64,000 bases of DNA from an uncultured Nitrospiraceae bacterium (GCA_963705105.1 CAVPIW010000005.1:160001-224000); one strand, 5' to 3'; counted from the first letter of the stretch, positions 7,161-58,544 are shown. Translations and numbers: made by a program. The notes: generated by a model not told the origin, from the letters alone.

Positions 7161-8153
7161 ATGTCAACCGGCATGTCTGATATTCCTCATATATCCTGTC
7201 CTGCGCTCAGGTCGCTCCTGGCCTCGCAGGGCGGCGTCGCTTTGCTCATCGTGCTTTGGGTGCTCACGATGCTCATGGTGATCGTCCTGTCCTTCTCCTT
7301 CATGACGAGAACGGAAACCCACGCCACACTCACGTTCAGAGAAGGAATAGAAAAGAAGTTCCTTGCCGAGTCGGGTATCCAGAGGGCGATCATGGAGCTC
7401 TTCTACAGGAACACCTACAAGGGCCAGACGGTCGTTCTCGAAGGCAAGGAGGTGTGGCGTGTTGACGGAACTTCCTACGAGGGAGAGACCGGCAACGGCT
7501 CGTATACGGTGAAAATCACTGACGAGTCGGGGAAGATAGACATAAATTACGCCCCTGATGTACTATTAAAAAACTTCTTTATCCACATGGGCGTTTCCGA
7601 TCAAGTCATCGACACCCTTGTGGATTCGATCATGGACTGGAAAGACCCCGATGACCTCCACAGACTCAGCGGCGCTGAAAGTGATTATTATCAGTCATTG
7701 CCGAAGCCGTACAAGGCCAAGGACGCCAATTTCGACACCGTCGAGGAACTGCTCCTCGTGAAGGGCATGACACCCGAGATATTATACGGTGACGGGACAA
7801 AACCCGGCGCAATCGAATTCCTCACCGTCCATTCACGTTCCGCTACCATCAACGTGACATCCGCGCCGAAAGAGGTGCTGATGGCGATACCGGGCATGAC
7901 GGAGGAACTGGCCGACGGTATCATTAGCGATCGCGAAACGCAGCAGGAAGAGACTCATCAGCCGGCCATCCCGACGGAGGGCAGGCAATATGCGTCCTTC
8001 GGCGCAACGACGGCGATCTATACCATAGAATCCGTTGGAAGAAAGGGGACGGACAAAACAGGACATGCCATCAGGGCCACCGTCATGATCGACAGTGCGC
8101 AGAATACGCAGAAATACCTGTATTACAAGAGTCCCGCTATCGTTCATCCATGA
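7161..8153 (+). CDS. gspK: Type II secretion minor pseudopilin GspK
   Basis: Prepilin-like SQGGVALLIVLWVL, DESGKIDIN, DSIMDWKDPDD, GAESDYY and EELLLVKGMT. Confidence 0.9.
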   Translation: MSTGMSDIPHISCPALRSLLASQGGVALLIVLWVLTMLMVIVLSFSFMTRTETHATLTFREGIEKKFLAESGIQRAIMELFYRNTYKGQTVVLEGKEVWRVDGTSYEGETGNGSYTVKITDESGKIDINYAPDVLLKNFFIHMGVSDQVIDTLVDSIMDWKDPDDLHRLSGAESDYYQSLPKPYKAKDANFDTVEELLLVKGMTPEILYGDGTKPGAIEFLTVHSRSATINVTSAPKEVLMAIPGMTEELADGIISDRETQQEETHQPAIPTEGRQYASFGATTAIYTIESVGRKGTDKTGHAIRATVMIDSAQNTQKYLYYKSPAIVHP

Positions 8154-9697
8154 CGGCATCTGCAGCGATACAGAAATTATCGTCTTTCATCGGCGAAGGA
8201 TCGGCCCTCATGCGGAGGATCGGCAGGCCCGTCGGAAGATTCCTCACATTCAGTCCATCGGACGATCTCATCTTTCCCGGCCGTGCCCTCTGTGTTTCTC
8301 TCGAAAAGGGTGGTACGGCGACAGCCTATGGATCGAGATTCCTGTCGAGGATCAAGATCAGGGGGTTCAGACATTACGGGATCGACGAAGACCGGTACCC
8401 CACACCGGACGAGACGGCATCGGCCGTTACCCTTGCCATCAATGACCTGCGGGCCCGTAAGGGACAAATCATCCTGATGATCCCGAAGGCCTGGGTGATG
8501 ACGAAGACTGCCGAACTGCCGCTGGCTGTGAAGGAGAACCTTCAGGACGTCATTGCCTTTGAATTGGACAGGCTGACCCCGTTGAGCGCTGAAGAAGCCT
8601 ATTACGACTTCCGGATTGTCGGCGAAGACGAAGAGAAGCTCAGCCTCACCATCCTTGCCGCCCGCACCGAGGTGATCGACCCCTATATCAATGCGCTCAG
8701 GGACAAAGGTGTGACCGTCAGCGCAATCGCCGTCTCCCTTGCAGGGGTCGGCACCCTCTGCCACTTCATGGATCGGAAAACGGACACCCTCTATATCGAA
8801 ACGAATGAGAGGGGATATGACGGCACTCTCTTCAGCAAGGGGTCGATCGTTTCCTCCCTTTCGGCACAATTCTCGTCGGACGATGAGACGTCGCAGTCCC
8901 GCCAGCTCGGCGCCGACCTGATGCGCCTTGCGCATAATGATGATGACAGGGGAGAACCCAAAGTCATCCTTCACATGAAGAGAAAGTCACAGACCCTGCG
9001 GGAGCTTGTGAGGCTCGGAACGAACATGAACGTCCTTATGATCGACGAGGTCGATCTGCGCCTTGCCATGAGGGAACCGCAGTCGAATGTCCCCTATGCC
9101 GCAGTCGCCGGTGTCCTTGACACCCTGTGGCCGGCGGTCAAACAGGGAAGGCTGAACCTTATGACAAAGGGACGTCATCAAGAGGTCCGCACGCCCAGGG
9201 TGCTGACGCTGATCCTCTGCCTTGTCATCATCGCGGCTGCCGTCTATTACATGATATCGCCGATCCAGATAGAGGAGAAACGGCTGAAAGAACTGGACCG
9301 CCAGATAGCCCTCAGAAAGGGCGATGTGAAGAAGGTGGAATCCCTGAAGAAAGAGATCGAGTCGGTGAAAAAAGAAATCGCCGTCATCGAGAATTTCAAG
9401 AAGAACAGGCCGATGACGATGACGATCGTGAAGGAAATAACGTCGGTGCTGCCGAAGACGGCCTGGCTGACGAGGCTCAGGATCACCGAGACGACCGTCG
9501 AGATCGAGGGATACTCGAATTCAGCGACGGAGATCCTCTCGAAGCTCGAGGCCTCGAAACACCTGAGGAAGGCGGAATTCGCCTCGCCGACCTTCCGGGA
9601 TGTCAGGATGAATGCCGAGCGGTTCATCATCAAAATGGAACTGGAAGGAGTGAAGAAAGAGGAAGGAGAGAAGCCGAAAAGTGGTCCGAAAAAGTAA
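8150..9697 (+). CDS. gspL: Type II secretion protein GspL (C-terminal PilN domain)
   Basis: Cytoplasmic domain with ELDRLTP, one TM helix, coiled coil and PilN-like LPKTAWLTRL...EIEGYS. Lies directly after gspK. Confidence 0.75.
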   Translation: MTASAAIQKLSSFIGEGSALMRRIGRPVGRFLTFSPSDDLIFPGRALCVSLEKGGTATAYGSRFLSRIKIRGFRHYGIDEDRYPTPDETASAVTLAINDLRARKGQIILMIPKAWVMTKTAELPLAVKENLQDVIAFELDRLTPLSAEEAYYDFRIVGEDEEKLSLTILAARTEVIDPYINALRDKGVTVSAIAVSLAGVGTLCHFMDRKTDTLYIETNERGYDGTLFSKGSIVSSLSAQFSSDDETSQSRQLGADLMRLAHNDDDRGEPKVILHMKRKSQTLRELVRLGTNMNVLMIDEVDLRLAMREPQSNVPYAAVAGVLDTLWPAVKQGRLNLMTKGRHQEVRTPRVLTLILCLVIIAAAVYYMISPIQIEEKRLKELDRQIALRKGDVKKVESLKKEIESVKKEIAVIENFKKNRPMTMTIVKEITSVLPKTAWLTRLRITETTVEIEGYSNSATEILSKLEASKHLRKAEFASPTFRDVRMNAERFIIKMELEGVKKEEGEKPKSGPKK

Positions 9698-10235
9698 AAG
9701 CCTCATCCTCACAATCCCCCTGATGGCGGTTCTTGTCGGTGTCATCACATATCAATACGGATATCTGCGCGTCCAGGAGGAACTGGCCGGGATCAAAGAA
9801 GAGCAGGCGATGAAGCAGAAGACCCTCGAAAAATATATCGCCCTCATCTCCGAGAAGCCCGGTCTCGAAAAGGATCTGGCGGCGCTCAAAGAGCTGAGGA
9901 AAGCGGAAGACGCGAAGCTGATCGAAGGACAGACGCCATCCCTTGCCGCTGCGACTCTCCAGGAAAGCGTCAAGGGCATCGTGACAAGCCGGGGCGGAAC
10001 GATTTCGAGTGAGCGCGTCGGGAAACCGGAGGACTTCGATGCCTTCAAGCTCATCACCGTCAGTCTTGACGCCGTCTTTCCCGATGCGAGGGTCCTGAGC
10101 GACGTACTGTATTCCATCGAGACCCGCACGCCCTATCTGGTCGTCAAGGAGCTCGATGTGCGTGTGAGAAACCTCAGGGACCCCAGAGACCTCATGGTGA
10201 AGCTCGACAACAGTGCCCTCCTCGGAGGCAAGTAG
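9681..10235 (+). CDS. gspM: Type II secretion protein GspM
   Basis: N-terminal TM helix, coiled coil, AAATLQ and LYSIETRTPYLVV (T2SSM_b-like). Position after gspL. Confidence 0.75.
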   Translation: MVRKSKSLILTIPLMAVLVGVITYQYGYLRVQEELAGIKEEQAMKQKTLEKYIALISEKPGLEKDLAALKELRKAEDAKLIEGQTPSLAAATLQESVKGIVTSRGGTISSERVGKPEDFDAFKLITVSLDAVFPDARVLSDVLYSIETRTPYLVVKELDVRVRNLRDPRDLMVKLDNSALLGGK

Positions 10236-11021
10236 GTGCGGATTCGAAGACTCCTGTCACATCTTAACGTGCTCAATGTGGCTCTCCTGTCCGTCACGAT
10301 CCTCTTCGGGCTCTATGTCCTGATGCCCGCGCTGCAGAAAGAGGTGTCCTTTGTCCCTCCGCCGGCAAAAAAGCAGGACGATAGGGCAGAGCAGAAGGAT
10401 GAGCCTCCTCCTGCGTCTTCTCCCCTGGAATTTGCCATGATCGCGGACCAGAACCTCTTCCATCCCGAACGGAGGATTCCCCCCGAAAAAAAGGATGCCC
10501 CTCCGCCGTTGCCCAAGCCCGAGATCGTGCTCCACGGGACCCTCGTGACGGAAGAGGTGAGCGTCGCCTACATCGATGACATAAAGGCGCCCTACACGAC
10601 GCCCGGAAGGGGAAAGAGACTGAGAGCGATGAAGAAGGGTGAATCGCTGAGCGGTTTCGTCCTCAAGGAGATCGGCGAGGACAAGATCCTGCTCGTCAGG
10701 GGCGAGGAGCACATGGTCGTCACCCTGAACGACCCGTCGAAGCCCAAAGCGCGTGAAGGCGTGACGACAGCAACCCCGACACCGGCAGGAACCCAGCCCT
10801 CCGGCATAGCGACGCCTCAGCCGACGACTGCGCCGGCAACCCGCGCTTCAGGGGCGGCGACTTCAAGGTCACAGCCGCCACCGGCGACACCGGCAGGGCA
10901 GGCGACGGTGACAACGCCGCCGGCGGCGGCACCTGCTCAACCCGCACAGCCGGCGCCTCAGCCGGGTACGGGCGATGCGAGGAGGAACTTCCTCGACCTG
11001 CTAAGGAGGGGAGGAAAATAA
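10236..11021 (+). CDS. GspC/XpsN-like T2SS inner-membrane protein, copy 1, Thr/Pro-rich tail
   Basis: TM anchor, NLFHPERR, IVLHGTLV and KGESLSGFVLKEI (HR-domain-like). Position after gspM. Confidence 0.55.
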   Translation: MRIRRLLSHLNVLNVALLSVTILFGLYVLMPALQKEVSFVPPPAKKQDDRAEQKDEPPPASSPLEFAMIADQNLFHPERRIPPEKKDAPPPLPKPEIVLHGTLVTEEVSVAYIDDIKAPYTTPGRGKRLRAMKKGESLSGFVLKEIGEDKILLVRGEEHMVVTLNDPSKPKAREGVTTATPTPAGTQPSGIATPQPTTAPATRASGAATSRSQPPPATPAGQATVTTPPAAAPAQPAQPAPQPGTGDARRNFLDLLRRGGK

Positions 11022-11069: not shown

Positions 11070-11948
11070 TTATTTCTTCGTCGGTGCGAGCAACTCCGTA
11101 TCCATAACCACACCGGCATCATCCATCGCTTTCTTGACGAACTCCTCGATTTTCGCCTTCCTCCTGTCCGCTGATATCTTTTCGCGGATCTTGTCCTTTA
11201 CCTTGTCCAAAGGCTCCAGGGTGGATTCTTTCTTTTCATCGACCTTAATGATATGGAATCCGAAGGGCGTTTCCACGACATCGCTCAGTTCCCCGGGCTT
11301 CAGCGAAAAGGCCGCCTTTTCAAACTCCGGCACCATTCTCCCTTTTGCAAAAAAGCCGAGATCTCCTCCCTTCGCCTTCGAGCCGGGATCGTCGGAGAAT
11401 TCAGCGGCGATCTTCGCGAAATCCTCGCCTCCCTTCAGCCTCTTGAGGAGACCTTCAGCCTTCTCTTTCGCCGCTTTCTTGGCCTCTTCCGGCGCTGTCT
11501 TGTCGACCTTCACGAGGATGTGCCTGGCCTTCACCATTTCGGGCGTCCTGAACTCCTCCTGGTGCGTCTTGTAATAGGCGTCGATGTCCTCGGCGGACAC
11601 ATCGATCTTTCCGATCACCTCTTTCTTGATATACTCAGTCATGAGAAAGTCATTCGTCAGCATGTCCAACTGTTCCATGACCTCAGGCCTCTTTGTGTAT
11701 CCCTGATCCCGCGCCATCTTGGAGATGACCATACCCTGCACGATCCGTTGCAGGATCGTCACTTTGAACTGGGGGTTCTGCTCGAGCATTTTCCGCCTTT
11801 CCGGATCATAGTACCCGAGCATCCGCTCAAGGTCTGCCATCGTGATTTGTTTGTCACTTACCTTGGCGAGCACCTTTTCCTCTGCCGCGTTCACGGCAGG
11901 AGCGACGGACAACGCGAGCAGGATCAACATAACAACAACCTTCTTCAT
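11070..11948 (-). CDS. PpiC/parvulin-type peptidyl-prolyl isomerase, exported, copy 1
   Basis: Signal peptide, [29 protein letters not shown] and [10 protein letters not shown]. Confidence 0.92.
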
Positions 11949-12443: not shown

Positions 12444-13193
12444 GTGAGGATTCGAAAGCCCCTTTCGCATCTCAATATACTCAATGTGGCGCTCCTGTCC
12501 GTCGTTGTCCTTTTCGGCCTCTATGTCCTTCTGCCTGCACTGCAGAAGGAGGTGACCTTCGTCCCGCCGGCAGCCAAGAAGCAGGATGAAAAAGCGGCCG
12601 AAACGGACGAGGAGCTTCCGGCGCCGTCTCCCCTGGAATTCGCCCTGATTGCGGACCAGAACCTCTTCCATCCTGAACGGAGGATCCCCCCCGAAAAGAA
12701 GGATGCTCCTCCGCCGTTGCCCAAGCCCGAGATTGTGCTCCACGGGACCCTGGTGACGGAGGATATGAGCGTCGCGTACATCGATGACGTAAAAGCTCCT
12801 TACACGACGCCAGGGAGGGGAAAGAGGCTGAGGACTATGAAGAAGGGCGAATCGCTGAGCGGTTTCGTCCTCAAAGAGGTGGGCGAGGACAAGATCCTCC
12901 TTGTCAGGGGTGAAGAGCACATGGTCGTCACCCTGAACGACCCGTCGAAGCCCAAGGCACGCGAAGCAGCGCCGGCAGCCGCGCCCGCGCCTGCCGGCAT
13001 CCGGCCGGGAGCGGTCGGTCAGCCGCCGGCGCCGCCGTCCTCCGGGCAGAAGCCCCCGGCGGCAACGGCTCCGCAGCCGGCAGCCGCGCAGCCACCATCC
13101 GCGCAGGCCCCATCGAGGGCGCCTGCTGCCGTCGGAGGCGGAGACACGAAAAACACGTTCCTCGACGCTCTAAGAATGAGGAAACAGAGATAA
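12444..13193 (+). CDS. GspC/XpsN-like protein, copy 2, Ala/Pro-rich tail
   Basis: Near-identical to 10236-11021 over the first ~170 aa, with a divergent tail. Confidence 0.6.
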   Translation: MRIRKPLSHLNILNVALLSVVVLFGLYVLLPALQKEVTFVPPAAKKQDEKAAETDEELPAPSPLEFALIADQNLFHPERRIPPEKKDAPPPLPKPEIVLHGTLVTEDMSVAYIDDVKAPYTTPGRGKRLRTMKKGESLSGFVLKEVGEDKILLVRGEEHMVVTLNDPSKPKAREAAPAAAPAPAGIRPGAVGQPPAPPSSGQKPPAATAPQPAAAQPPSAQAPSRAPAAVGGGDTKNTFLDALRMRKQR

Positions 13194-13347: not shown

Positions 13348-14229
13348 TTATGGTTTTGTCGCGGGCATGAGCGGCGCCGTATTGAACTCGACCCTCGCAT
13401 CCTTCAGGGCCTTGTCCATGAAGTCCTGGATCTTGCCTTTTTTCATGTCATTGGAGACCTTTTCACGCACTTTGTCCTTGACCTTGTCATAAGGTTCGAC
13501 GACAGACTCTTTTTTATCGTCGACACGAATGATGTGAAACCCGAACGGCGTCTCGACGATGTCGCTGATCTCTCCGGCCTTGACAGAAAACGATGCATCC
13601 TCAAAGGGTTTCACCATTCTTCCCCTGGCGAAATAACCGAGATCGCCACCTTTCGCCTTCGATCCGGGATCATCGGAAACCTCTGATGCAAGCTTGGCGA
13701 AGTCTTCTCCCGCCTTGACCCTTTTCAGCACATCCGCAGCTTTGCCCCGTGCTTTTTCCTTTTCATCGGCAGTGGCGCTCTTGTCGACCTTGATGAGTAT
13801 GTGGCTCGCTTTCACCATTTCCGGTGTCCTGAACTCGTTCAGATGAGTTTTATAATACAGGTTCGTATCCTCTTCCGTTACATCTATTTTGGCGATTATC
13901 TCCCTCCTGACGTATTCCTGGGAAAGAAAATCATCGGAGAGCAGGTCCAGTTGCTCTTTCACGTCATCGATCTTTTCAAACCCCTTTCCCTTTGCAATTC
14001 TTCCGACCACCCTCCCCTGGACGATTCGGCGAAGCAGGGTTTCCCTGCGCTGGGGGCTCTCCTGAAACATCTTCCGTTGATTCTGGTCATAATAGCCGAT
14101 GATCCTGTTCAGATCGGAGAGCTTTATCTGTTCGTCACCGATCTTTGCGAGAACAGGATCGTCAGAGGCAAAAACAGGGACACAGGACAGCGCAATCACG
14201 ACAAACATAACCATTAACATCCGCTTCAT
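13348..14229 (-). CDS. PpiC/parvulin-type peptidyl-prolyl isomerase, exported, copy 2
   Basis: GGAGG RBS, signal peptide [30 protein letters not shown] and ETPFGFHII. Confidence 0.9.
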
Positions 14230-14347
14230 TTCAATCCTCCGGATATTTCTTGAAATAACACCGTGCCCGCCCTCCTGTATTGATTTCACGCAGTGGAGGG
14301 CAAACATTACTGACGACCTCGCAAAAAAGCCTTACATAGCACTATTC

Positions 14348-14723: not shown

Positions 14724-16661
14724 TTACCAGAAGACCTCGAAAGACGCCGGGCAGTTACCGAGTACATTGCAGTCCGCGTCACCGATGGTCAATCTCGTTC
14801 TGCTCTGAAACTGCGTCAGGGTATTCACCAACATGATGAAGTAGCAACCCTGAGGATTATCAGGCACCCCATAGATCTCGTTGAATTCAAAAGAGGCATC
14901 TCCGATCTGATAGTACAGGTCGTCACGGGCTCTCAGAGGGCTCCATGTGCCTGAGGAAGCGGTCCACCTCGAATTTCCGTTCGCCGCTATATAGTCCTTC
15001 ACGAGATTGTAATCCGCCATGACGGGGACGCCGCTCTCGCAGGCCGGTCCGGCGTATTTGATAATCATGTCGATGTTGCCGCCTTCCGTTTGAACCATAT
15101 TGGCGAGACCTATCTGCAATGCCTGCCCCTGCCCCACAGGCATGGACATATACTTAAAGGTCCGAATGCCGTTAGGTGACATGCTGAAATAATTTACGCT
15201 CATATTCGTCACCTCAGGGATGGTGGCGTCCGCACTGACGACGGTGATCGTGATCGGTATGGTCCGCGGGGTCCCGATGGCCGGAGCGATCGTAATACTG
15301 CCCGTATAGGTCCCGACCGCGAGATGGGCACTGTTAAACGTAATGGAAAGATCTCCCGTTCCCGCAGCGTTGACCGCAGGCGTCACGATCACAGCAGGCG
15401 ACACCGGCACCGAAGAGGCATCCTTTATCGGGTCGACGGCGGTCACCGTGTAGGCAATTCTTGCCTGGCAGTTGTTCTGTATCGTTAGTGCAGCAGCATT
15501 CGCATTCGTGCCGGCCGTGATGGTCTGCGCTACGCTCAGCGGGAAAATCTGTGCCGATGTGGGCTCACAGACACCGGTTATCGTCAACACCACGTCGATG
15601 CTCCTCGTAAGGGACCCCGATGAAATATTTATGGTCCCGGTGTATGTGCCCGGAGACAACGCCGACGTATTAACCGCGCCTATCGTGAGCGTCCCGAAAC
15701 CGCTGGGAGTCACACTGAGCCATGAACTCGCAGTCGATGCGCTGTACGAGACCGCATTTCCGCAATTGTCACTGACCTGAACACTCGTCGACGGGGTTTC
15801 ACCGGCGGCCGCGCTCAGCCCGACCGGAGCCGGCCAGACGCTCATAGACGTGGGAGTACAGGTAGTCGGCGGCGTCGTCCCTCCGCAGTTGCCGATTATG
15901 CAGAGATCCTTGACAGTCATTGTCACAGGCATCTGCCTCGTCGTCCCCGCCGCAGTGATCGTGATTACGCCGGAATAGGTGCCCGAAGTGCGGTGCCCGT
16001 TCAGGGTCACCTCCAGCAGTCCGGTCTGCCTGACCAGGGTCATCCATTCCGCCGATGATGTAGCGCTGAATTCAAGGGCCTTATTGCACGAATCATTTAC
16101 AGGGATTTGTATTTTTTTCGTCCCGTACCAATCGACGCTTTCGTTCAATGAGGCGGGGTTGACAACAAGTGTACAGTCCGTCGGGGTTGGAGGAGGAGGC
16201 TGCACACCGCCCTTGACGATGACCACTCTTCGCGGCTCGGCACAGTCCGCGCCGCCTGAGAGCGTTCCGTCAACACTGCCGTCCATGCAAATATTAATAT
16301 AAAAGTCACTCATGCCAAAGGTCGTTTCAAAAGCGCGCCACTGCGCGTTGACATACTGGACCATCGTTGCGGCGCCCAGCGGCACCATCGTCGCGATGTC
16401 GGTAAAAGGCACCCACCCGGTCGCATCAAGGTACCCCCTCGTCAAGGGGTCCCGGACGTCCTCAACCCACACAAACAGCTCAATAGGACTTCCCGCCAAA
16501 AACGTTCCTTCCAGAAAGATAGGGACAATCAAAGGCTCACCCTCGTTCACCGTGATATCGGCGGGGAAATCATTCAGATACACTGCCGCCTGAAGTCCCC
16601 CTGTTATGATCAGGCTGAAAACAAAGACCGTCAATACGACCCACAACCTTTTAACCCTCAT
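14724..16661 (-). CDS. Secreted protein with three BACON/Ig-like repeats
   Basis: GGAGGT RBS and signal peptide. Three repeats ending GTY(S/T)GxITI/INI, W-containing SWLSV/EWMTL strands and a Cys pair per repeat. Confidence 0.75.
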   Translation of the reverse strand: MRVKRLWVVLTVFVFSLIITGGLQAAVYLNDFPADITVNEGEPLIVPIFLEGTFLAGSPIELFVWVEDVRDPLTRGYLDATGWVPFTDIATMVPLGAATMVQYVNAQWRAFETTFGMSDFYINICMDGSVDGTLSGGADCAEPRRVVIVKGGVQPPPPTPTDCTLVVNPASLNESVDWYGTKKIQIPVNDSCNKALEFSATSSAEWMTLVRQTGLLEVTLNGHRTSGTYSGVITITAAGTTRQMPVTMTVKDLCIIGNCGGTTPPTTCTPTSMSVWPAPVGLSAAAGETPSTSVQVSDNCGNAVSYSASTASSWLSVTPSGFGTLTIGAVNTSALSPGTYTGTINISSGSLTRSIDVVLTITGVCEPTSAQIFPLSVAQTITAGTNANAAALTIQNNCQARIAYTVTAVDPIKDASSVPVSPAVIVTPAVNAAGTGDLSITFNSAHLAVGTYTGSITIAPAIGTPRTIPITITVVSADATIPEVTNMSVNYFSMSPNGIRTFKYMSMPVGQGQALQIGLANMVQTEGGNIDMIIKYAGPACESGVPVMADYNLVKDYIAANGNSRWTASSGTWSPLRARDDLYYQIGDASFEFNEIYGVPDNPQGCYFIMLVNTLTQFQSRTRLTIGDADCNVLGNCPASFEVFW

Positions 16662-16693
16662 ACGAACCTCCCTATGTTCGGTCATATATTTAT

Positions 16694-48568: not shown

Positions 48569-49471
48569 TTATCCCTCCTTTTCCGCCAGCACGAACGTCG
48601 TCGAGGCGAAGACCATTGCATTGCCCCTTTCGTGGAATCGCCGGTCAAGCGGTTTCAGCACAAGACTAAGGATCTTTAGAAGCACCCGTGCCGGCACATG
48701 AACGAGGGGATGGAAATACTCCCTGAAGAACCGGGAACTGAGATCAAAGAATGCATAGATCGGACCGACGCAGGTCCCGCTGTCGACGATACGGAAACCG
48801 CATTTTTCAAACACCAGCGCATGCCCTGTGAGAGTAAAATTCTGAAAGTGGTTCGGATAGCCGTGATATGCCTGAAGAAACGGTGTTATGGAGAGCACCC
48901 TGCCCGCTCCTCTGAGGACCCTGAACATCTCGCTAACGGCCCTCTCCGGATCGGAAAGGTGCTCCAGCACGGCCTCACAGAATATCGCATCCACACTGCC
49001 CTGTGCATAGGGGAGATGGTGGGCGTCTGCAACGACATCGACATTCGGAAAGGGCCCGATGTTCAGGTTCGTGAAGACCGGATGCTGCCGGGCAGGCCCT
49101 CCGCCTATCGACAGGACCAATGACTGCCCCGTATCGAGCGAATCAAACATATTACTGAAATAGGTGTAAGTCTTCCTGTTCCGGTAATCCTTCCGGAGGA
49201 AAGTCCCGAACCGGTGCCGCGCAATCTCCCATGAGCCGAATCGCCTCTTCTCACACCCGTATTCCCCGCTCATCCTTTCCGAGGATTTCGCATACCTGTC
49301 CGCCCAGACGGGATCGAGGAGGAGGACGGGAACGACCGTGTCCCCGTTCCTGATGACGGGGAACGACTCTCCTCCCTCCGTCGCAATAAAGCGTCCGTCG
49401 GCAGAAAAAAGAGAGACGTTCGAATGTCCGCGGGCTGACGATGATTCCCTTTTCAATTTGACGGAGGACAT
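48569..49471 (-). CDS. Class I SAM-dependent methyltransferase (type 11)
   Basis: LSIGGG, ADAHHLP, AVLEHL and PFLQAYHGYP. Confidence 0.85.
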   Translation of the reverse strand: MSSVKLKRESSSARGHSNVSLFSADGRFIATEGGESFPVIRNGDTVVPVLLLDPVWADRYAKSSERMSGEYGCEKRRFGSWEIARHRFGTFLRKDYRNRKTYTYFSNMFDSLDTGQSLVLSIGGGPARQHPVFTNLNIGPFPNVDVVADAHHLPYAQGSVDAIFCEAVLEHLSDPERAVSEMFRVLRGAGRVLSITPFLQAYHGYPNHFQNFTLTGHALVFEKCGFRIVDSGTCVGPIYAFFDLSSRFFREYFHPLVHVPARVLLKILSLVLKPLDRRFHERGNAMVFASTTFVLAEKEG

Positions 49472-50938: not shown

Positions 50939-50971
50939 CTGTTCTTTTGTCTACCGTCCACTGTTTGCTGC

Positions 50972-51188
50972 TTACCTTATCGCTGCAATAGGATGTCCGG
51001 AAAGGCGGGATAAAGATGCCGAAAAGCCTTGGTGCTGCGAAACCTTTGCCTTCCCACAAGGATCATTTCAGGCCTACGGTCGATCGCACAAAGGATGAAT
51101 CCCACATTTCCAATTTCAACTGATCATTCTCGCTATCAGCAAGGCCTTGAGGCGCTTTATCCCGCCTTTTCACACAACTGAAAGGCTT
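50972..51188 (+). repeat. Dispersed hairpin repeat, family A subtype 2
   Basis: AAAGGCGGGATAAAG...CTTTATCCCGCCTTT arms. Matches 38677-38895. Confidence 0.85.
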
Positions 51189-51202
51189 ACTGCCTGCCTG
51201 CT

Positions 51203-52036
51203 TCACCGGGCCTCCCTGCTGCCGACATAGAGCCCCAATTCCTGCGCAAGCCGGTAGACGATGATGTGAAAGAGCCACATCGGACTATACCCGTTTTCCC
51301 TGACAAACCTGAAATCCGTCCGGACGTGCCGTTTCCAGTCGACATAGACGTCTTTCAGGGTCCTGTCCGGCAGGTTCAGGCAATGCTTAAGCGAACACCG
51401 CTCCTTCCGGTATCTCCTGAAGTAGTACCACGGAGATGACGAGTGCGAATGGAATACCCGGGCACAAGGGATGTAACGGATAGAGAATCCCCGGCTCATC
51501 ACTTCCTTTGCCCAGAAAAGATCCTCGCAGGCCGGGAGCGCTTCGTCGAATCTCACCTGCTCCCACATCCATTTCCTCACGGCCGCGTTCGCGTTCGAGA
51601 ACTTGTTGCCGTCCGGCCCCACCTCAGGGAAGTGGTTCAGGATGTCCCTTGCCTGGGACGGGCAGGTCTCGGGCCAGGGGATGTCCCGTCCAAAGGTAGC
51701 TGCCACTGCGGGATCCTCGAAGGGCTCGACCATGAGGTTGAAATAATCGACTCCTTCCGGCACCGAGTGCCCGCTCAGGTGGAGCATAATATCGCCCCGG
51801 GCCTCTGCTATCCCGATGTTGAGGGCGCGACCGAATGAGAACGCCTGCGGTTTCATTTCGATGACCCGGCAGCCCGAGGAACGGGCGATCCCGACGGTTT
51901 CATCAGTCGAGCCCGAATCGACGAGGATGATCTCGACGGGTCCGCCGTACTCCTGCTCCTTCAGCCTCTGCAGCACCCTGCCGAGATAGGCCGATTCGTT
52001 CTTCGTCCTGATTATGACGGAAACAGGAGGGGTCAT
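51203..52036 (-). CDS. GT2 glycosyltransferase, paralog of 39735-40583
   Basis: VIIRTKNE, VDSGSTD, FGRALN, LSGH, FSNAN and CED. Confidence 0.88.
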   Translation of the reverse strand: MTPPVSVIIRTKNESAYLGRVLQRLKEQEYGGPVEIILVDSGSTDETVGIARSSGCRVIEMKPQAFSFGRALNIGIAEARGDIMLHLSGHSVPEGVDYFNLMVEPFEDPAVAATFGRDIPWPETCPSQARDILNHFPEVGPDGNKFSNANAAVRKWMWEQVRFDEALPACEDLFWAKEVMSRGFSIRYIPCARVFHSHSSSPWYYFRRYRKERCSLKHCLNLPDRTLKDVYVDWKRHVRTDFRFVRENGYSPMWLFHIIVYRLAQELGLYVGSREAR

Positions 52037-52725
52037 CGGGCACTCGTGTCCCGCTCCGCAAGGAAATATGCAGCCCTCCCCTGCCACTCAGACGTCGTCT
52101 CGATCACCCTGAAGCCGCATACCTTCAGTAAACCGGCGATGAAATTCGTGGTGAAGAGATACCACCATGCGGCATAGTCATCGAGAGACCATCCGCTCTC
52201 GACAGGGAGATTGATGCCGACGATCTTCGCACCCACCTCTTCGAAATAGGCGGCGACGACGCTTCTCTGCCCGTTGCTCAGCGCCGGGACGAGGAGCGCC
52301 GTGTTGTCTGCCATCGCGATCGTTCCCGCATCGTTCGAGATCGTCAGAGGAATGACGGTGCTGCCGAGTATCATGGTCTTCCTCGTGATCCTGGCGAGCT
52401 GGGAGACCGTGTAGAGGGGATTCGGGCAATGATAGACGACACCGGCACAGTGGACGACATCAAAGGATCCTACCCTTTCGGGGAAATGAGGATCATCGAC
52501 ATTTCCCTGCATGCACCGCGAGCAGACCACTCCCTGCTCTTTGCAGCGCTGATGGAACTTTGTCCACATCTCATGATCGAGAGGGGCGATATCCACCATG
52601 GCCGCCTCAGCAGCCCCCGCTTTTGCGGCGACCGTCACCCGCTCGTTGAGGGTCCCCCAAAGTCCGCCCACATCCGCAAATGTTTTCCCCCGGACGACCG
52701 CCTGTATCCACTCGTTACACGACAT
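52033..52725 (-). CDS. Class I SAM-dependent methyltransferase
   Basis: FADVGGLWG and FDVVHCAGVVYH. Confidence 0.78.
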   Translation of the reverse strand: MSCNEWIQAVVRGKTFADVGGLWGTLNERVTVAAKAGAAEAAMVDIAPLDHEMWTKFHQRCKEQGVVCSRCMQGNVDDPHFPERVGSFDVVHCAGVVYHCPNPLYTVSQLARITRKTMILGSTVIPLTISNDAGTIAMADNTALLVPALSNGQRSVVAAYFEEVGAKIVGINLPVESGWSLDDYAAWWYLFTTNFIAGLLKVCGFRVIETTSEWQGRAAYFLAERDTSAR

Positions 52726-52740
52726 GATGTCCTTCTCCTT

Positions 52741-54294
52741 TCACTTTTTAGCCGGCTCGTCCCGCGGCATGACGTAGCCGGGAACGGTCCGCAGTGCTTC
52801 CGCGTAAACTCTCCATGAATGCCTCGACTCGATAAGATCCCTCGCATGACGGGCAATCCTGCCGAGGACCTGACGGTCGGCGAAAATGCCATCCAAACGC
52901 CTCACATACCCTCCGACGTCATCGTAGGGATCGACGATAAAGCCCGTTTCGCCGTCGATGATGACCTCGGGGATCCCTCCCGTCTTCGAGGCAATGACCG
53001 GAAGACCCATGGAAATGGCCTCGAGAATCACATTTGGGATGCCGTCCCATTGAGATGTATAGAGAAACAGGTCGTACTGATCTGCGGGCAGCGAGGGGAG
53101 GCCTTCGAATCCCCCCTGATAACGGACGTTCGGCAACGTCCTCAGTGCCGTGACGAAGCGGTCCGCATCCAGGTGCGATGTGCCGTACACAGGTGTCCCG
53201 TAAACGTGAAACGTGAAGGGGAGACGGGCGGCGTCACACGCTTCGGCAATGCCGATCAGGATGTCGGGCCTCTTCTGTATATCGAGCCGGCTCGCCCAGA
53301 GGATGTCCATACGCTCCTTAACGGTCTTGCCGGGATCGTACTCCCTTGCCGAAACCGGATCAACGGGCTGGTACTGGACATGGAACTTTCCCCGGTCGAA
53401 AGCGAAGATGCCGCAGAGCTTGTCGATGATCGTGCGGTTTTCGGTCACGACGGCGGTGAGCGCATCAAAACAGTGCGGCAGGAAGCAGATGGGATACCCG
53501 ATCATCCTGCCCTCGGGCGTCACGTCCTCGCAGAACGCCGATGCATAGAGCCGCGACCGGCTGGCCAGCGCCTTCCCGTATGTGATAAACACTCTGTATC
53601 CTAAAAGCGAATTGATCGTATGGATAACGGGCGGGGCCATCTGAAGGAGCACCCTGACGAGGAGCTTTTCCTGTTCATCCTGTTTCAGGTGACCGTACCG
53701 TTTGCCGAACTCGATGAACCTCACCGCTGCAGGCAGCCTTTCGGCCCAGGGCGAGTCGTCCCGTTCCGTCGTTACGACGACAACGCCCGTCGCCAGATTC
53801 TCCGTGACGAGAGCCCTGACAAGGTTCAGGGTCACCAGTTCGGCGCCTCCCTTTTTCAGCCACGGCGTCAGGATGACGTGGCTCACGGATGCCCCAAAAA
53901 GCCGGTACAGGTCGAGATAGTGCTCACCGACCCGCGATGGTGAGATGTAGTCTGTGACAACCTCGACGGGTATGCTGAAATCGGGGAAGAGCTGCGGCTC
54001 TATGGCATGGATCTCCCTCCATTCGTCAATGAGCCACGGGGGAAACCGGTCCCTGCGGCCGTGGACGTCGCGCTGAGGCACTGTATGGTCCTGCTCCGTC
54101 ATATGTGCGGTCTCCGCACCGCTTTCCCGATGGTCCGGAGATGAATCGAAGAGCCCCTTGAAGGCCTCTTTCAATGCGACGGCAAACCGGTGCACTCTCG
54201 GATGCCTGTGGACGATCGGCCTCAGGGGGCCTTTGACGGCCCGGTATGCCGACCGACTCAGGGTATAGATGGCCTCAGCAGCCTTGTTCTTCAT
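52741..54294 (-). CDS. GT4 glycosyltransferase
   Basis: GGAE, SRLDIQKRPD, TSQWDGIPNVILEA and GGIPE. Confidence 0.88.
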   Translation of the reverse strand: MKNKAAEAIYTLSRSAYRAVKGPLRPIVHRHPRVHRFAVALKEAFKGLFDSSPDHRESGAETAHMTEQDHTVPQRDVHGRRDRFPPWLIDEWREIHAIEPQLFPDFSIPVEVVTDYISPSRVGEHYLDLYRLFGASVSHVILTPWLKKGGAELVTLNLVRALVTENLATGVVVVTTERDDSPWAERLPAAVRFIEFGKRYGHLKQDEQEKLLVRVLLQMAPPVIHTINSLLGYRVFITYGKALASRSRLYASAFCEDVTPEGRMIGYPICFLPHCFDALTAVVTENRTIIDKLCGIFAFDRGKFHVQYQPVDPVSAREYDPGKTVKERMDILWASRLDIQKRPDILIGIAEACDAARLPFTFHVYGTPVYGTSHLDADRFVTALRTLPNVRYQGGFEGLPSLPADQYDLFLYTSQWDGIPNVILEAISMGLPVIASKTGGIPEVIIDGETGFIVDPYDDVGGYVRRLDGIFADRQVLGRIARHARDLIESRHSWRVYAEALRTVPGYVMPRDEPAKK

Positions 54295-55073
54295 GACCCC
54301 GCTTCATTTCGTCCCTTCCCATCCTCCTGCAGCAAACGCGAGTATATGTCGGGATCAAACAGCCTCGAAGGCCGGATGATCCTGTTGGATTCTTTCGTAT
54401 ATGCCAGAAGAGAGCCCGATCTCTTGATTCTCAGGAAGTGGACCGTCCCGGGCACGACATCGTGGCCGATGGCGCCTGCGAGGGTCTGACAGTTCCAGTG
54501 CCAGTCTTCGTACCCGAAACCTTCACCTCCCGTCGTGCTCTCATAAGTATGGTTCAAGAAAATCTCTCTTTTCGCCATGCAGACGGCGTCCCAGTAATTG
54601 TATTCGATGATGTTGGCATACCTGAACGACCGGTCCGTCGAGGAAATCTGGCGGAAGAGAAGATGCTTCCCTTCGAAATACATCTGGTATTCGGGATGCG
54701 CCACCACCTTGCCGCCCCGCGCGAGGAGGTACTGATAGGCGTCATAAAGCCAATTGAGACAGATGAGATTGTCAGCATCGAGGACCGCGATGTATTCACC
54801 GGTCGCTCGGGCGATGCCGGCATTGCGGGTCAGTCCGAGGTCGCCGACGTCGGCCCTCGCAAGGGTGATGTCTTCACCTTCGGGGGATGAAAAGTATTTC
54901 ACAGTCGCCTCGTCCGGCCTGTCCAGGACGACGACCACCTCCACGGACAGACCTCTTTCCGTCGCATACCGGCGGGATCTATGAAGGCTGCGCATCGTGT
55001 GATGGGCCAGTCGTCCTTCATGGTGGGCCGCGATAACGACTGTTATGTCTTTACTGCCGTGACTGCTCGTCAC
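54291..55073 (-). CDS. GT2 glycosyltransferase
   Basis: AHHEG, DLGLTRNAG, LDADN and GYEDWHWN. Confidence 0.85.
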   Translation of the reverse strand: MTSSHGSKDITVVIAAHHEGRLAHHTMRSLHRSRRYATERGLSVEVVVVLDRPDEATVKYFSSPEGEDITLARADVGDLGLTRNAGIARATGEYIAVLDADNLICLNWLYDAYQYLLARGGKVVAHPEYQMYFEGKHLLFRQISSTDRSFRYANIIEYNYWDAVCMAKREIFLNHTYESTTGGEGFGYEDWHWNCQTLAGAIGHDVVPGTVHFLRIKRSGSLLAYTKESNRIIRPSRLFDPDIYSRLLQEDGKGRNEAGS

Positions 55074-56398
55074 GTCTTGCCGCCCCCCGGTTGAATCATG
55101 TCCCTCAGCTTTCTCCCCGGCCATGTCAATACCCTTCCCACGCGGAAGGAGAGAGATCCGGTGACAGCCTGAAGCTCACCGGTCAAGCTCCTGACATGAT
55201 CCGCCTCAGCCAGCAACTCTCTTTCTTTGTCGCGCAACTCACCTTCCTTGCCCTGAAGCTCTTCCGTCCTTTTCTGCAGTTCTTCATTGCAGGCGATCAG
55301 ACGCTGATTCGTCTCGTCCCACCTCTGCCAGCCCTCTTGCCCGTGCTTCCACACCTCTCCGAGCTTCGTCTCCGTTTCGATAAGCCTCCTGTTGGTGTCG
55401 TCCCACCTCTGCCAGCCCTCCTGTGCATGGCGCCACGATGCGTGGAGCCTGTTCATCCTGTCCAGGCAGAGTCGTCTGAAGGGGTTGTCCGGGTGCCTCG
55501 CGAACTCTTCGAGCAGCGCCGACCTCTTGTCGGGACGGATGATACCGAACAGGAGCAGTGTCATGATCATCCTGTCGGTGTCGTAGGTCTTGATCGAATT
55601 GTATAATTTGACGAGAGTCATGCACGGCAGTGAGCCGTTATCCGGCTCTGCGGGAAGAAGGGGCGACATGTCGTGGTTCAGGAGAAAGCTTGACAAAACG
55701 AGGCCGACATCGATGCTCACCGCAGCTTCGCTCTCCCGCAGGGTGTTGAGATCGTGCACCCGGTATTTGACGAGCGCTTCCTCGATGACGTGCACCCTGG
55801 CGCTCGAGCAGAGACGGAGAAAGAAGTCATAGTCGTGGGCATAGCGGAGGTTCGTGAAAAGGCCCACGGTCCCGAACACCTCCCGCCTGCAGAAGAGATT
55901 CGACGTGGTGATGAGGAAATTACCCGCCAGGAGATTGAGGATTATGTTTTCCTCACCCTTGAAGGAGTCTTCCGGGCTGTGATCCATCCAATACTCTTCC
56001 GGGCCCCGCGGCGATTTGACGGTATTGTCCTCATCGTCGATGAAATCGACGTAGCTGAAAACCGCCGCAAGTGAGGCTTCACCTTCGAGTTTCTCAGCGC
56101 AGATCTCGAGCCTCCGCGGATGATAGATGTCATCGGAGTTGAGAACTGCCACGAAAGTGCCCTGCGACAGATCGATGCCGCGGTTGATCGCAGCGGCGGC
56201 GCCCCTGTTCTCCTGGTAGAAATAACGGACCCTGCCGTCCTCGCAGGCCCGTACGATGTCGCCGGACCGGTCCTGCGACCCGTCGTCGATGACGATGAGC
56301 TCGAAATCTTCGCAGGTCTGTCCGAGGACGGAGTCAATGGCCCTCTTAATGTAGCGCTCGTGGTTATAGAGGGGGATGATGACGCTGACTTTCGGCAT
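55070..56398 (-). CDS. GT2 glycosyltransferase with C-terminal coiled coil
   Basis: IPLYNH, IDDGSQD, LNSDD and HDYDF. The tail has a 28-aa repeat and an SxSFRVGRVLTWP end. Confidence 0.9.
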   Translation of the reverse strand: MPKVSVIIPLYNHERYIKRAIDSVLGQTCEDFELIVIDDGSQDRSGDIVRACEDGRVRYFYQENRGAAAAINRGIDLSQGTFVAVLNSDDIYHPRRLEICAEKLEGEASLAAVFSYVDFIDDEDNTVKSPRGPEEYWMDHSPEDSFKGEENIILNLLAGNFLITTSNLFCRREVFGTVGLFTNLRYAHDYDFFLRLCSSARVHVIEEALVKYRVHDLNTLRESEAAVSIDVGLVLSSFLLNHDMSPLLPAEPDNGSLPCMTLVKLYNSIKTYDTDRMIMTLLLFGIIRPDKRSALLEEFARHPDNPFRRLCLDRMNRLHASWRHAQEGWQRWDDTNRRLIETETKLGEVWKHGQEGWQRWDETNQRLIACNEELQKRTEELQGKEGELRDKERELLAEADHVRSLTGELQAVTGSLSFRVGRVLTWPGRKLRDMIQPGGGKT

Positions 56399-56434
56399 TA
56401 TGACGATGACACCTTATTATCTCTCATGCACCCT

Positions 56435-56667
56435 TGTCCAAAACATCTTGCAGCGAGACCTTGGAAACGAGGATAGGGTGTGGTTTCTGAAGCAAAATTC
56501 ACGGGTATCGTGAACGGCGGCGGGAGTCGAAGGCGATAGCCGCAGCGGGAGCCGCGCAGTGTACCAGAGAAGGCAAAAATTTTCATAACAGGGGCATACA
56601 CATGAGGAGAGGAAGTTTATTTTGGGAAGAAAGCATGCCCTATCCTCATATAACGTTATTTTGGACA
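56435..56667 (+). repeat. MITE-like family B element
   Basis: TGTCCAAAA...GAGGATAGGG and CCCTATCCTC...TTTTGGACA inverted ends. Confidence 0.85.
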
Positions 56668-56701
56668 CCAGTGTCTCTCACGACAAAAAGGGATGAGCGC
56701 A

Positions 56702-57733
56702 TCAGCGCAGTGCCTCCAGGAGTCTGTCGCGCAGTCTGTAATAGCGGCAGAGGAGTTTCCACCCCCGTCCTCCCTGAATGATCCGGATATACTCCTCCTT
56801 TTCACGGAGCTGCCCTTCGAGCCCCTCGTTCCGGGAGCGAAGCCTGCCGATGGCATCATCTTTCTCAACGGTCATTTCGGTGAGACTGGAGATCTCGGAC
56901 TCCTTCTCCGCTATGACCCTGCCTTTCTCCTCGTTGCCCGCGGTCAGGGCATTCAGGCGGTCCCTGTAATACCGCATCACCTCGCCGGTGATCTTGTCCC
57001 TGTGCTTCAGCACGACCTTATCATACTCTATAGCCAGCGTATCCCAAAAGTCCCTGCTCTGCGCTATCTGGTGCTCCGGACTCCACTGGACGTAGCGGGC
57101 CGTCACCTTGTCGAGGTGGATCAGGGGAAACCGGGATCCGCAGCGTATAAAGAAATCCCAGTCTTCATACGCCGCAAACTCCTCATCGAATGTACCGATC
57201 ATATCTGTAACGGTCCTGCTGAAGAGGACATTGATAAGGGGGATATAGTTTTCGAGGAGGAGATCGCAGAGCGAAAAATCCCTCGACCGGAAGACGCACA
57301 CGTCCCGGTCCGTATATGTCATGGTTGTGAAGTCATACTGTCTGGTGACCATCTCGGCATCGCTGTAAGCGAATAACCGGCCGTCGTCATGCAATGCAGC
57401 GAGGAGAGACTCCACATGGTCAGGGTAGAATTCATCATCATCATCGAGAAATCCGACATATTCACCCCGGACATGACTGATTCCGATGTTTGCAGCGTGC
57501 GCCCTGCCCCTGTTGACGTCCAGCTTTTCGTAGGTAAGGGGCATCCCGCCGAGGAGGGATCTCAAATTATCGATGTCAAGGTCGACGCCGCCGTCATTGA
57601 CCAACACGACTTCGATGTTCCGGTAAGTCTGCGCGGCGATGCTGTGCAGCGCACTCTGCAGGAGTTTCGGCCTGTCCTTCGTTCTGACGATGATCGAGAC
57701 GAGGGGCGGATGAATGTCGCTTCGCTGATTCAC
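56702..57733 (-). CDS. GT2 glycosyltransferase with C-terminal coiled coil
   Basis: VRTKDR, VNDGG, FLDDDD and YEDWDF. Heptad tail ending GRGWKLL. Confidence 0.9.
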   Translation of the reverse strand: MNQRSDIHPPLVSIIVRTKDRPKLLQSALHSIAAQTYRNIEVVLVNDGGVDLDIDNLRSLLGGMPLTYEKLDVNRGRAHAANIGISHVRGEYVGFLDDDDEFYPDHVESLLAALHDDGRLFAYSDAEMVTRQYDFTTMTYTDRDVCVFRSRDFSLCDLLLENYIPLINVLFSRTVTDMIGTFDEEFAAYEDWDFFIRCGSRFPLIHLDKVTARYVQWSPEHQIAQSRDFWDTLAIEYDKVVLKHRDKITGEVMRYYRDRLNALTAGNEEKGRVIAEKESEISSLTEMTVEKDDAIGRLRSRNEGLEGQLREKEEYIRIIQGGRGWKLLCRYYRLRDRLLEALR

Positions 57734-57863: not shown

Positions 57864-58050
57864 GGGAAGGCGGGGCGCATGCGCCGAAAACCTTGATGCG
57901 GCGACACCTTACGCGTCACAGAAGACGACTTTTCAACTCAATGGTCGATCGCACGGAGAGTGGAAGCCTGAAAGACGAACCTGACGAGGCTTATCATCGC
58001 CTTCAGCAAGGATTTGAGGCGCTTCACCCCGCCTTTGCACGCAACTGGAG
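57864..58050 (+). repeat. Dispersed hairpin repeat, family A subtype 1
   Basis: Aligns with 5747-5968 and 58567-58781. Confidence 0.85.
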
Positions 58051-58115
58051 GAGTCCGTTTGACCCCCTATCTGCCCGTCTGGTAGAATAAACAAAATTTC
58101 ACTTGGAGGAATATC

Positions 58116-58544
58116 ATGCAATCTCAATGGCATAGAGTCAGAAACCGGAAGGGCTTCACCCTCGTTGAGCTCCTTGTTGTCATGGTGATCATCGGGCTCC
58201 TGGCCGCCCTCGTCGGTCCCCGCCTGTTCCCGAAACTCGGCAAGGGCAAGCAGGCTGCCGCAAAGGCCCAGATCGAACTCCTCGGTCAGGCCCTCGACCA
58301 ATACAGGCTCGACGTCGCGGCATACCCCACGACGGAGCAGGGCCTCAACGCCCTCACCACAAACCCGGGCGTCGAAAAATGGGAGGGCCCGTACCTGAAA
58401 AAAGGGCTGCCCGTCGACCCCTGGGGAAAACCGTATCTTTACCAGAGTCCCGGCTCGCACGGGGAGTATGACCTCTTTACCTACAGCAGGGACGGAAAGC
58501 CTGGAGGAGAGGGAGAAGACGCGGACGTGACGAACTGGGAATAG
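58116..58544 (+). CDS. gspG: Type II secretion major pseudopilin GspG
   Basis: G|FTLVELLVV, YPTTEQGL, WEGPYL, DPWG and DG..GGEGEDAD. GGAGG RBS. Confidence 0.96.
   Translation: MQSQWHRVRNRKGFTLVELLVVMVIIGLLAALVGPRLFPKLGKGKQAAAKAQIELLGQALDQYRLDVAAYPTTEQGLNALTTNPGVEKWEGPYLKKGLPVDPWGKPYLYQSPGSHGEYDLFTYSRDGKPGGEGEDADVTNWE

Follow-up and report, generated by a model that had tools for sequence, protein, structure and literature searches.

The surface-layer (S-layer) protein NpdA of Delftia acidovorans Cs1-4 and Paracidovorax citrulli, an exported protein of about 50 kDa without known domains, is encoded next to the Xps-type gsp1 genes of a type II secretion system (T2SS), a pairing documented in papers (PMC3110197, PMC10765051) whose main texts report NpdA only from Beta- and Gammaproteobacteria and do not mention glycan genes. 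Here we analyse a 64,000-nucleotide stretch of DNA (the window; positions are counted from its first letter) from an uncultured Nitrospiraceae bacterium (GCA_963705105.1 CAVPIW010000005.1:160001-224000), in which a gene at 17042-18454 for a candidate NpdA-family S-layer protein lies among T2SS, chaperone and glycan genes, in what is likely a Nitrospirota anaerobe.

Aeromonas already provides a precedent for the overall architecture. In the A-layer locus of A. salmonicida (vapA, sps; PMC4483657), a dedicated T2SS and the S-layer gene lie inside an rml/wzm/wzt/glycosyltransferase (GT) cluster with an ArnT-like gene, the T2SS genes and vapA being placed between wzm and wzt; rmlB, wzt, wbbB and gtf-2 mutants lose O-antigen, and the S-layer is tethered by lipopolysaccharide (LPS). 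We liken VapA by its description and not by its sequence, and the open reading frame (ORF) table of that paper, which excludes ORFs 1-5 and 14-17 of wb-salmo, contains no TMTC-like or parvulin gene. An S-layer gene beside a proposed dedicated T2SS is likewise described for Slr4 of Pseudoalteromonas tunicata (PMC7821379), and the slr4 K locus of Vibrio parahaemolyticus combines a T2SS with a polysaccharide dependent on an ATP-binding cassette (ABC) transporter, differing in that the polymer is called a capsule (10.1101/2025.06.27.661923); by these descriptions, rather than by sequence comparison, Slr4 is a separate S-layer family. Compared with the NpdA systems, the present locus has as its own features a T2SS distributed over two contigs, a BACON protein, duplicated gspC and parvulin genes, and a TMTC-like gene with further GT-C genes. 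The slg clusters of Geobacillus and Paenibacillus also encode Wzm/Wzt, an undecaprenyl-phosphate initiating transferase and methyl-capped chains, in monoderm organisms which export the S-layer protein by Sec only and carry a Wzy_C-type ligase, WsaB, inside the cluster. The window, unlike these clusters, has no Wzy_C-type ligase, matches to PF04932 being confined to contigs C7 and C12.

A first-pass annotation of the window, made from the sequence alone, knew of no description of this combination, which was mostly wrong because NpdA with gsp genes and a T2SS with an S-layer gene in a wzm/wzt cluster had already been published (PMC10765051, PMC4483657); the link to a TMTC-like gene was found in no paper searched. 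Our literature search, conducted mostly outside subscription papers, returned nothing on NpdA in Nitrospirota, on NpdA glycosylation or on a bacterial TMTC acting on an S-layer. What is new here is the reach into Nitrospirota, the TMTC-like addition, an apparently co-transcribed lipoprotein partner and a swapped glycan cassette.

The protein encoded at 17042-18454 is very probably a distant member of the NpdA family and likely S-layer-forming, as the first-pass annotation had proposed on other grounds than family membership. A profile (A1) matches the 'cell surface protein' of Comamonas odontotermitis with 187 bits (E 4.5e-50, positions 23-416 of 474), and this species is listed with an npdA ortholog in Table 2 of PMC10765051. 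The Comamonas locus reads rfbBDAC, gspE-M, gspC-like, gspD, small lipoprotein, cell-surface protein, peptidyl-prolyl isomerase (PPIase), wzm, wzt, methyltransferases and GT2s, so that the likeness extends to the lipoprotein, parvulin, wzm/wzt, methyltransferases and GT2s in the window's order, and the core order gspD-lipoprotein-S-layer gene-parvulin-wzm-wzt is common to both. In the Atlas, the protein lies at 0.97 to a cluster named 'surface layer protein NpdA', a recognition score below threshold and to be taken as a lead. As in NpdA, we found a signal peptide (one N-terminal hydrophobic stretch by hydropathy), a mass of about 50 kDa (47 kDa when mature), no conserved domains and an adjacent gsp cluster; the pI is about 4, Thr makes up 11.4% of residues and His is absent. 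The gene is single-copy in the genome and its product has no Pfam, NCBIfam or Protein Data Bank (PDB) sequence match, nor did an NCBIfam scan of 68 members of its family reveal a meaningful family. A word search returned 144 homologs and a full profile search at least 3974 clusters at 50% identity (E<=0.001). Against this assignment stand a pairwise similarity to the Comamonas protein of just 30% over 132 aa, and the fact that the link to NpdA depends on a single protein annotated 'cell surface protein' together with an automatic cluster name; homology was assessed via the C. odontotermitis protein rather than the experimentally proven Delftia and Paracidovorax sequences (DelCs14_5206, AAVE_RS20655). 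Some family members of 830-1650 aa contain two matched stretches (P0139, P0142, P0145, P0151, P0154, P0179 and others), constituting tandem S-layer-unit fusions.

The AlphaFold model of the protein is confident (predicted local distance difference test, pLDDT, 92.7) and beta-rich, with short strands. An outer-membrane beta-barrel, which would have spoken against an S-layer role according to the first-pass annotation, does not fit these confidently modelled short-strand domains or the beta-sandwiches that are the nearest folds. Foldseek gave no match at E<=1e-3, and the best VIA fold match was T. maritima TM1070 (Z 8.7, root-mean-square deviation 2.8, 108 aligned, with mostly residues 41-231 tested). 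The fold comparison with S-layer structures thus yielded beta-sandwiches and no solved S-layer among the matches, which is no proof of a new fold.

The genome (4.2 Mb, 19 contigs, 99.4% complete) is assigned with good likelihood to Nitrospirota (Thermodesulfovibrionia) because the closest relatives of the window's proteins are from Nitrospirota, Thermodesulfovibrionales or Ca. Sulfobium. Model searches found lpxC and dsrA, both over cut-off, which point to a likely diderm, sulfate- or sulfite-reducing anaerobe and bear out the diderm anaerobe of the first-pass annotation. When gene calls were checked against Pfam and NCBIfam models, every gene that the annotation had named between 7161 and 58544 was found (Table 1).

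The S-layer protein is probably exported by the Xps-type T2SS linked to the window. The components missing from the window, gspE, F, H, I and J, are on contig C7 beside a GT2, rmlC and wbaP, with H and I nearest to Xps models, and a second, complete T2SS is encoded separately on contig C14. Dedication of the window-linked T2SS is favoured because the missing genes are present on another contig and a second full system exists; the complete gsp set is distinct from the general T2SS and linked to the S-layer gene, and from this linkage across the family we infer that it serves the S-layer protein. Against the Comamonas gsp proteins, the split window/C7 set scored higher than its C14 counterpart for 7/7 components with matches, and in two genomes (G133 and G042) gspE-C is contiguous with the S-layer gene, G042 also having wbaP there. 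The paired gspC and parvulin genes noted by the first-pass annotation are both present and arose by one local duplication (69% and 58% identity, respectively; 85% at the DNA level over 570 bp); the related loci in which a parvulin occurs, 23 in number, have a single copy each. In the C14 system (C14:225000-248000, L037), gspD and gspE are separated by a CPBP-family sorting protease gene, and an exported protein of 3005 aa is encoded upstream.

The linkage of S-layer homologs with T2SS, chaperone and glycan genes, predicted by the first-pass annotation, is conserved in both close and distant loci. Among 32 related genome loci, 19 of which have at least 7 kb on each side ('full'), the 19 full loci contain the lipoprotein (19), GT2/GT4 (18), any gsp gene (16), parvulin (16), gspD (14), a TMTC ortholog (10), wzm/wzt (9) and BACON (7), the counts for all 32 being 30, 24, 22, 23, 19, 10, 11 and 10, respectively. 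For the best 80 of 579 metagenome stretches of a distant clade, where features were counted on contigs long enough to hold them, the lipoprotein was present in 41/42, gspD in 27/27, a parvulin in 21/22 and wzm/wzt in 10/12.

The lipoprotein and S-layer genes are likely co-transcribed as a short unit. Promoter-like sites with at least 10/12 matches occur upstream of the lipoprotein gene in 21/30 related loci and in 37/640 control windows, the unit has a strong Shine-Dalgarno sequence, and the region after the S-layer gene (16960-17045) folds with a minimum free energy of -36.5 kcal/mol (z -5.3, equalled by 0/200 shuffles); folding picked up the hairpin at 16970-17005, which a dedicated terminator scan did not. 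The S-layer gene had been described as strongly expressed-looking, an impression to which the 11/12 sigma-70 promoter, Shine-Dalgarno sequence and terminator hairpin lend substance and codon usage does not: its codon adaptation index ranks 1572 of 2204, giving no sign of high expression, in a genome in which ribosomal genes are barely biased and the test is uninformative. Metatranscriptome contigs cover the gene in 4/4 runs examined, which come from 3 studies (of 6 RNA runs listed), with long pieces about 99% alike in three of the four, and these show presence in RNA libraries only, because contig depth cannot rank genes and DNA was possibly present; depth differences and stretches of the locus lacking RNA cover were accordingly given no weight, and DNA runs with small word shares were set aside.

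A predicted complex of the lipoprotein with the S-layer protein scored 0.56, the best control scoring 0.07, with at least 68% of contacts agreeing between runs and a partner pLDDT of at least 81. The mark used for such scores was reached by 116/157 solved and 2/215 mismatched pairs; support for the complex is weak because at scores of 0.60 or below it was reached by only 18/157 solved pairs and by both mismatches. The lipoprotein is put forward as a candidate S-layer binding partner, with weak support from modelling; a PDB search with its profile gave chance matches only. In two loci (L013, L014) the lipoprotein gene comes after the S-layer gene and gsp genes are missing nearby, and in L040 two copies lie near S-layer-like genes, arrangements because of which the lipoprotein appears to track the S-layer gene more than gspD.

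The glycan genes (GT2, GT4, methyltransferase, radical S-adenosylmethionine (SAM), GNAT and PIG-L, with two PMT_2/ArnT-like genes) span 23.8-57.7 kb. Two acyltransferase-like genes in the first block belong to no Pfam family, the first being frameshifted near 27850; one acyltransferase-like gene and the membrane gene at 33.0-35.3 kb are each split over two frames, possibly by assembly error. Contig C15 (28 kb) matches the window at 98.5-99.6% identity from 57414 outward; it then departs into 16.5 kb of other glycan genes and terminates with a PIG-L 3' end at 86%, which looks like a second strain's serotype-like cassette in the bin. Between the gspG-side GT2 and PIG-L, this alternative to window 38457-64000 encodes a 1400-aa multi-GT2 protein and nucleotide-sugar genes.

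We lean, by a modest degree, towards LPS as the destination of the window's polymer. The genome encodes Wzm, a Wzt with a C-terminal binding domain, an initiating transferase, a WaaL-like protein and lipid A genes, the set expected of an ABC-dependent O-antigen pathway without Wzx or Wzy; no Wzx was found genome-wide, the lone PF13440 match being MurJ. Wzy_C/WaaL (PF04932) has no match in the window and three in the genome, on C7 and C12 only, one of which is a WaaL-like protein at C7:235k among heptosyltransferases, in the LPS core locus. ABC-exported polysaccharides require no polymerase, and WaaL is usually encoded in the core locus. The missing ligase and polymerase, which the first-pass annotation had correctly remarked upon within the window, are consequently no evidence for protein glycosylation, because an ABC cluster needs neither there and a WaaL-like gene is in the core locus. 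Several observations weigh against this destination. The core-locus ligase need not use the window's polymer, because there is one such ligase for three wzm/wzt pairs (in the window, on C9 and on C12); wzm/wzt is within about 10 kb of the S-layer gene in only 9/19 full loci; and in V. parahaemolyticus the polymer encoded by an slr4/T2SS region is an ABC-dependent capsule rather than O-antigen (10.1101/2025.06.27.661923). The C12 pair is accompanied by Wzc, the sole Wzz/Wzc match in the genome. Identified by sequence reading alone, the C9 cluster (C9:255000-300900, L140-L142) contains sulfotransferase-like and adenylyl-sulfate-kinase-like genes and adjoins a run of about six similar-looking exported proteins of 580-715 aa.

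The gene upstream of gspD (21503-23800) was called TMTC-like by the first-pass annotation, a label which its fold and the DD, KE and DW motifs uphold and Pfam PF08409 does not. Eukaryotic TMTC1-4 (GT105) have a GT-C membrane domain followed by C-terminal tetratricopeptide repeats (TPRs), with DD, KE and DW in order, and transfer one mannose from a lipid monophosphate (PMC7801869). Compared by sequence and model, the window protein has the same arrangement of GT-C fold (about 11 transmembrane (TM) helices in GT105) and TPRs. Its model (pLDDT 85) has as top Foldseek match the protein O-mannosyltransferase Pmt4 (E 5e-4), with AftA, AftB, AglB, PglB, ArnT and STT3 as weaker neighbours, and, of 465 sequences found, the 72 that were aligned conserve M1 DD (D61, D62), M4 KE (K230, E231) and M5 DW (D341, W342). 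Atlas neighbours carry PMT_2, one being a eukaryotic DUF1736 cluster at 0.93, and a PDB sequence search gave TPR matches only. N-glycosylation was considered and rejected: no STT3 was found in the genome and there is no D/E-x-N-x-S/T sequon.

That this enzyme acts on the S-layer or BACON protein is possible, at somewhat less than an even chance. Counting as orthologs matches of at least 200 bits (the next score was 125; the threshold was set after the scores were known), 150 other genomes of the order yielded 91 with a TMTC-like match of some kind, 20 with an ortholog, 20 with an S-layer match (two weak) and 13 with both, so that the ortholog occurs in 13/20 genomes with the S-layer gene and 7/130 without (Fisher p 2e-9); these genomes overlap the 32 related loci. 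In the seven with an ortholog and no S-layer match, nearby exported proteins score E 0.006-2.7 against the profile, lipoprotein homologs are nearby in 4/7, and divergent S-layer genes are possible. Next to the TMTC-like gene in six related loci (L025, L026, L028, L029, L031, L054) is a polyprenyl-phosphate sugar synthase-like GT2, whose best NCBIfam match, PpgS, falls below cut-off and which has an unlinked ortholog (57-59%) in this genome; such a monophosphate-sugar synthase-like neighbour would fit transfer of one sugar, not polymer ligation.

Other results count against such a role. Motifs M2, M3 and M7 are altered (M2 partial, M3 R only, M7 EHRNY), M6 was not identified and DUF1736 (PF08409) gives no match in this gene, in which respects it differs from TMTC1-4. 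TMTC-like genes of some kind occur in 92/151 genomes of the order, and kinship inflates the co-occurrence. Thr makes up 10.0% in the TMTC-bearing clade and 9.5% in the distant clade, and because the two are about equal there is no compositional sign of targeting. A different role, that of ligase for the polymer, is opposed by loci that lack the gene. One 100% complete genome (G133) combines wzm/wzt, gsp genes and the S-layer gene with no TMTC match; the ortholog is absent from 5/5 further genomes, with one partial match, and none was found in the Comamonas locus (41 kb) or in the distant loci (0/80), the latter absence being weak because those loci are short. S-layer plus wzm/wzt loci without it thus exist, and the TMTC-like enzyme appears to be an addition to the NpdA module within Nitrospirota.

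Taken as a whole, we give about an even chance to a likely S-layer that leaves through the linked T2SS and is held to lipid A by an ABC-exported O-polysaccharide, with a TMTC-like enzyme adding single sugars. The lipoprotein and S-layer genes would be expressed together as a short unit, between a strong promoter and a terminator; the S-layer protein would cross the inner membrane through Sec by its signal peptide, with folding aided by parvulin and lipoprotein, and exit by the T2SS divided between the window (K, L, M, C, D and G) and C7 (E, F, H, I and J). By Aeromonas precedent, WbaP, encoded beside gspE, would prime undecaprenyl-PP, GTs of the cassette would extend and cap the chain, Wzm/Wzt would flip it, the WaaL-like protein would ligate it to lipid A-core and the GtrB/ArnT-like genes would add side branches. 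In what is the weakest step, the TMTC-like GT-C could move one sugar from a polyprenyl-phosphate donor to periplasmic Ser/Thr of the S-layer or BACON protein.

The first-pass annotation had placed the Wzm/Wzt glycan on the S-layer protein itself, via the TMTC-like enzyme. En bloc transfer of this kind, as in Geobacillus but in a diderm and followed by exit through the T2SS, could explain why the TMTC gene heads the glycan block co-oriented with gspD and why its ortholog tracks the S-layer gene; the GT-C fold also resembles AglB, PglB and the genomically missing STT3, two further wzm/wzt pairs could serve LPS, and native NpdA bands run at 150 kDa or above, compared with about 61 kDa for recombinant protein, a difference which the authors read as oligomers (PMC3110197). 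We nonetheless find it improbable, and do not favour it, because the genome has a WaaL-like gene in the core locus and S-layer/wzm/wzt loci without TMTC exist, wzm/wzt being linked to NpdA genes even where no TMTC gene was found; known TMTCs, moreover, move single mannoses (PMC7801869), a monophosphate-sugar synthase-like gene adjoins in relatives, and the Aeromonas precedent is LPS (PMC4483657).

It is also conceivable, though unlikely, that the TMTC-like gene decorates the O-polysaccharide or lipid A in the manner of ArnT- or Gtr-type genes, leaving an unglycosylated, LPS-tethered S-layer: its fold neighbours include ArnT, AftA and AftB, four or more further GT-C-like genes belong to the cluster, an ArnT-domain gene is part of the O-antigen cluster of A. 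salmonicida (PMC4483657), and 'glyco' occurs 0 times in the main texts of PMC10765051 and PMC3110197. The closest fold match is nevertheless a protein O-mannosyltransferase, and conservation of the gene holds at 42-53% as the glycan cassette changes. Its long TPR tail in the periplasm would suit a protein substrate, as is established for TMTCs. Least probable to us is a polymer that is capsule-like or linked to another glycolipid, independent of lipid A and the S-layer, with O-antigen supplied from C9 or C12. The three wzm/wzt pairs and the Vibrio precedent would allow for it; against it, the window's Pfam matches include no outer-membrane export or co-polymerase gene, the only Wzz/Wzc being on C12. 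Wzt_C and coiled-coil, WbdD-style capping GTs, both encoded in the window, are typical of O-antigen-type chains.

Returning to the reading with an LPS-tethered S-layer and single sugars, the slot after the S-layer gene is occupied in most of 27 loci by varied exported Ser/Thr/Cys-rich proteins (BACON, Ig-like or of no family), and the BACON protein is, on sequence grounds, a candidate accessory surface protein and glycosylation substrate. In L018 (12873-14990) and L024 (12820-14940), the Ser/Thr-rich accessory gene is followed immediately by another PMT_2+TPR gene, which is distant from the first.

Table 1 Features of the window, with strand and basis of assignment.
Feature	Position	Strand	Basis
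gspK, T2SS minor pseudopilin	7161..8153	+	PF21687 2e-16, NF037980 2e-21
gspL (PilM/PilN-type)	8150..9697	+	PilN/PilM_2 matches
gspM (XpsM type)	9681..10235	+	NF040576 over cut-off
gspC-like copy 1	10236..11021	+	NF041515 3e-5, below cut-off; after gspM in relatives too
Exported parvulin PPIase copy 1	11070..11948	-	Rotamase Pfams; 32% to Comamonas locus PPIase
gspC-like copy 2, local duplication	12444..13193	+	69% to copy 1; weak model match, below cut-off
Exported parvulin PPIase copy 2, local duplication	13348..14307	-	58% to copy 1
Exported Ser/Thr-rich BACON protein, slot after S-layer gene	14724..16685	-	PF19190 (BACON_2); T 11.6%, S 8.4%
Predicted intrinsic terminator hairpin and U-tract after S-layer gene	16970..17005 (approximate)	-	RNA folding
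Probable NpdA-family S-layer protein, 470 aa, signal peptide, predicted all-beta sandwich domains	17042..18454	-	Profile match, Atlas, model
Conserved lipoprotein upstream of S-layer gene	18560..19015	-	Linkage; Comamonas homolog E 2e-16
Sigma-70 promoter-like site	19053..19081	-	11/12 matches, 17-nt spacer, before lipoprotein
gspD secretin	19313..21439	-	TIGR02517 374 bits, over cut-off
TMTC-like GT-C transferase with C-terminal TPRs, single copy	21503..23800	-	TPR Pfams, 10 TM (hydropathy), fold, motifs
Glycan-modifying block	23810..30889	-	GNAT, two radical-SAM/SPASM, methyltransferase, two acyltransferase-like, B12 radical SAM
wzt (Wzt_C sugar-binding domain) and wzm	31033..33083	-	PF14524, PF01061; 36%/30% to Comamonas locus
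Split membrane GT-C-like gene, polyprenyl-phosphate sugar synthase-like GT2, methyltransferase, PIG-L deacetylase	33033..38665	+	Model matches, sequence
Variable glycan cassette	38650..57414	.	GT2/GT4, methyltransferases, GtrB-like GT2, 9-TM GT-C-like, two ArnT/PMT_2, coiled-coil GT2s
gspG major pseudopilin	58116..58544	+	TIGR01710 over cut-off; 53% to Comamonas gspG

Outside these features, intergenic repeats of about 200 bp, with many copies genome-wide, occur at 5594-5973, 37235-37459, 38667-38895, 50972-51197, 56451-56678, 57865-58049 and 58593-58776; several flank glycan genes and gspG and could help cassette exchange. At 4036-5550 a DDE transposase gene overlaps scpA on the opposite strand (a 1 kb copy is on C12), a tlyA-like gene at 6318-7080 is in two frames, and contig C4 carries an array of 23 tRNA genes (C4:10181-12340).

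With these results the NpdA family reaches at least 3974 clusters at 50% identity and what is likely a Nitrospirota anaerobe. They define a six-gene core of gspD, lipoprotein, npdA, parvulin, wzm and wzt, of which the published main texts describe only gsp and npdA. They also name partners for the S-layer: the lipoprotein as a candidate binding factor, the polysaccharide as a probable anchor, and the S-layer or BACON protein as a candidate substrate for bacterial TMTC-like enzymes. We propose, tentatively and against the odds, that the Thermodesulfovibrionia NpdA module recruited a bacterial TMTC-like enzyme which O-glycosylates the beta-sandwich S-layer protein or the BACON protein in the periplasm before export by the T2SS, with the lipoprotein as S-layer partner. 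If true, the bacterial TMTC-like family, widespread and uncharacterised, would gain its first substrate, and cadherin O-mannosylation would have a parallel in prokaryotes.

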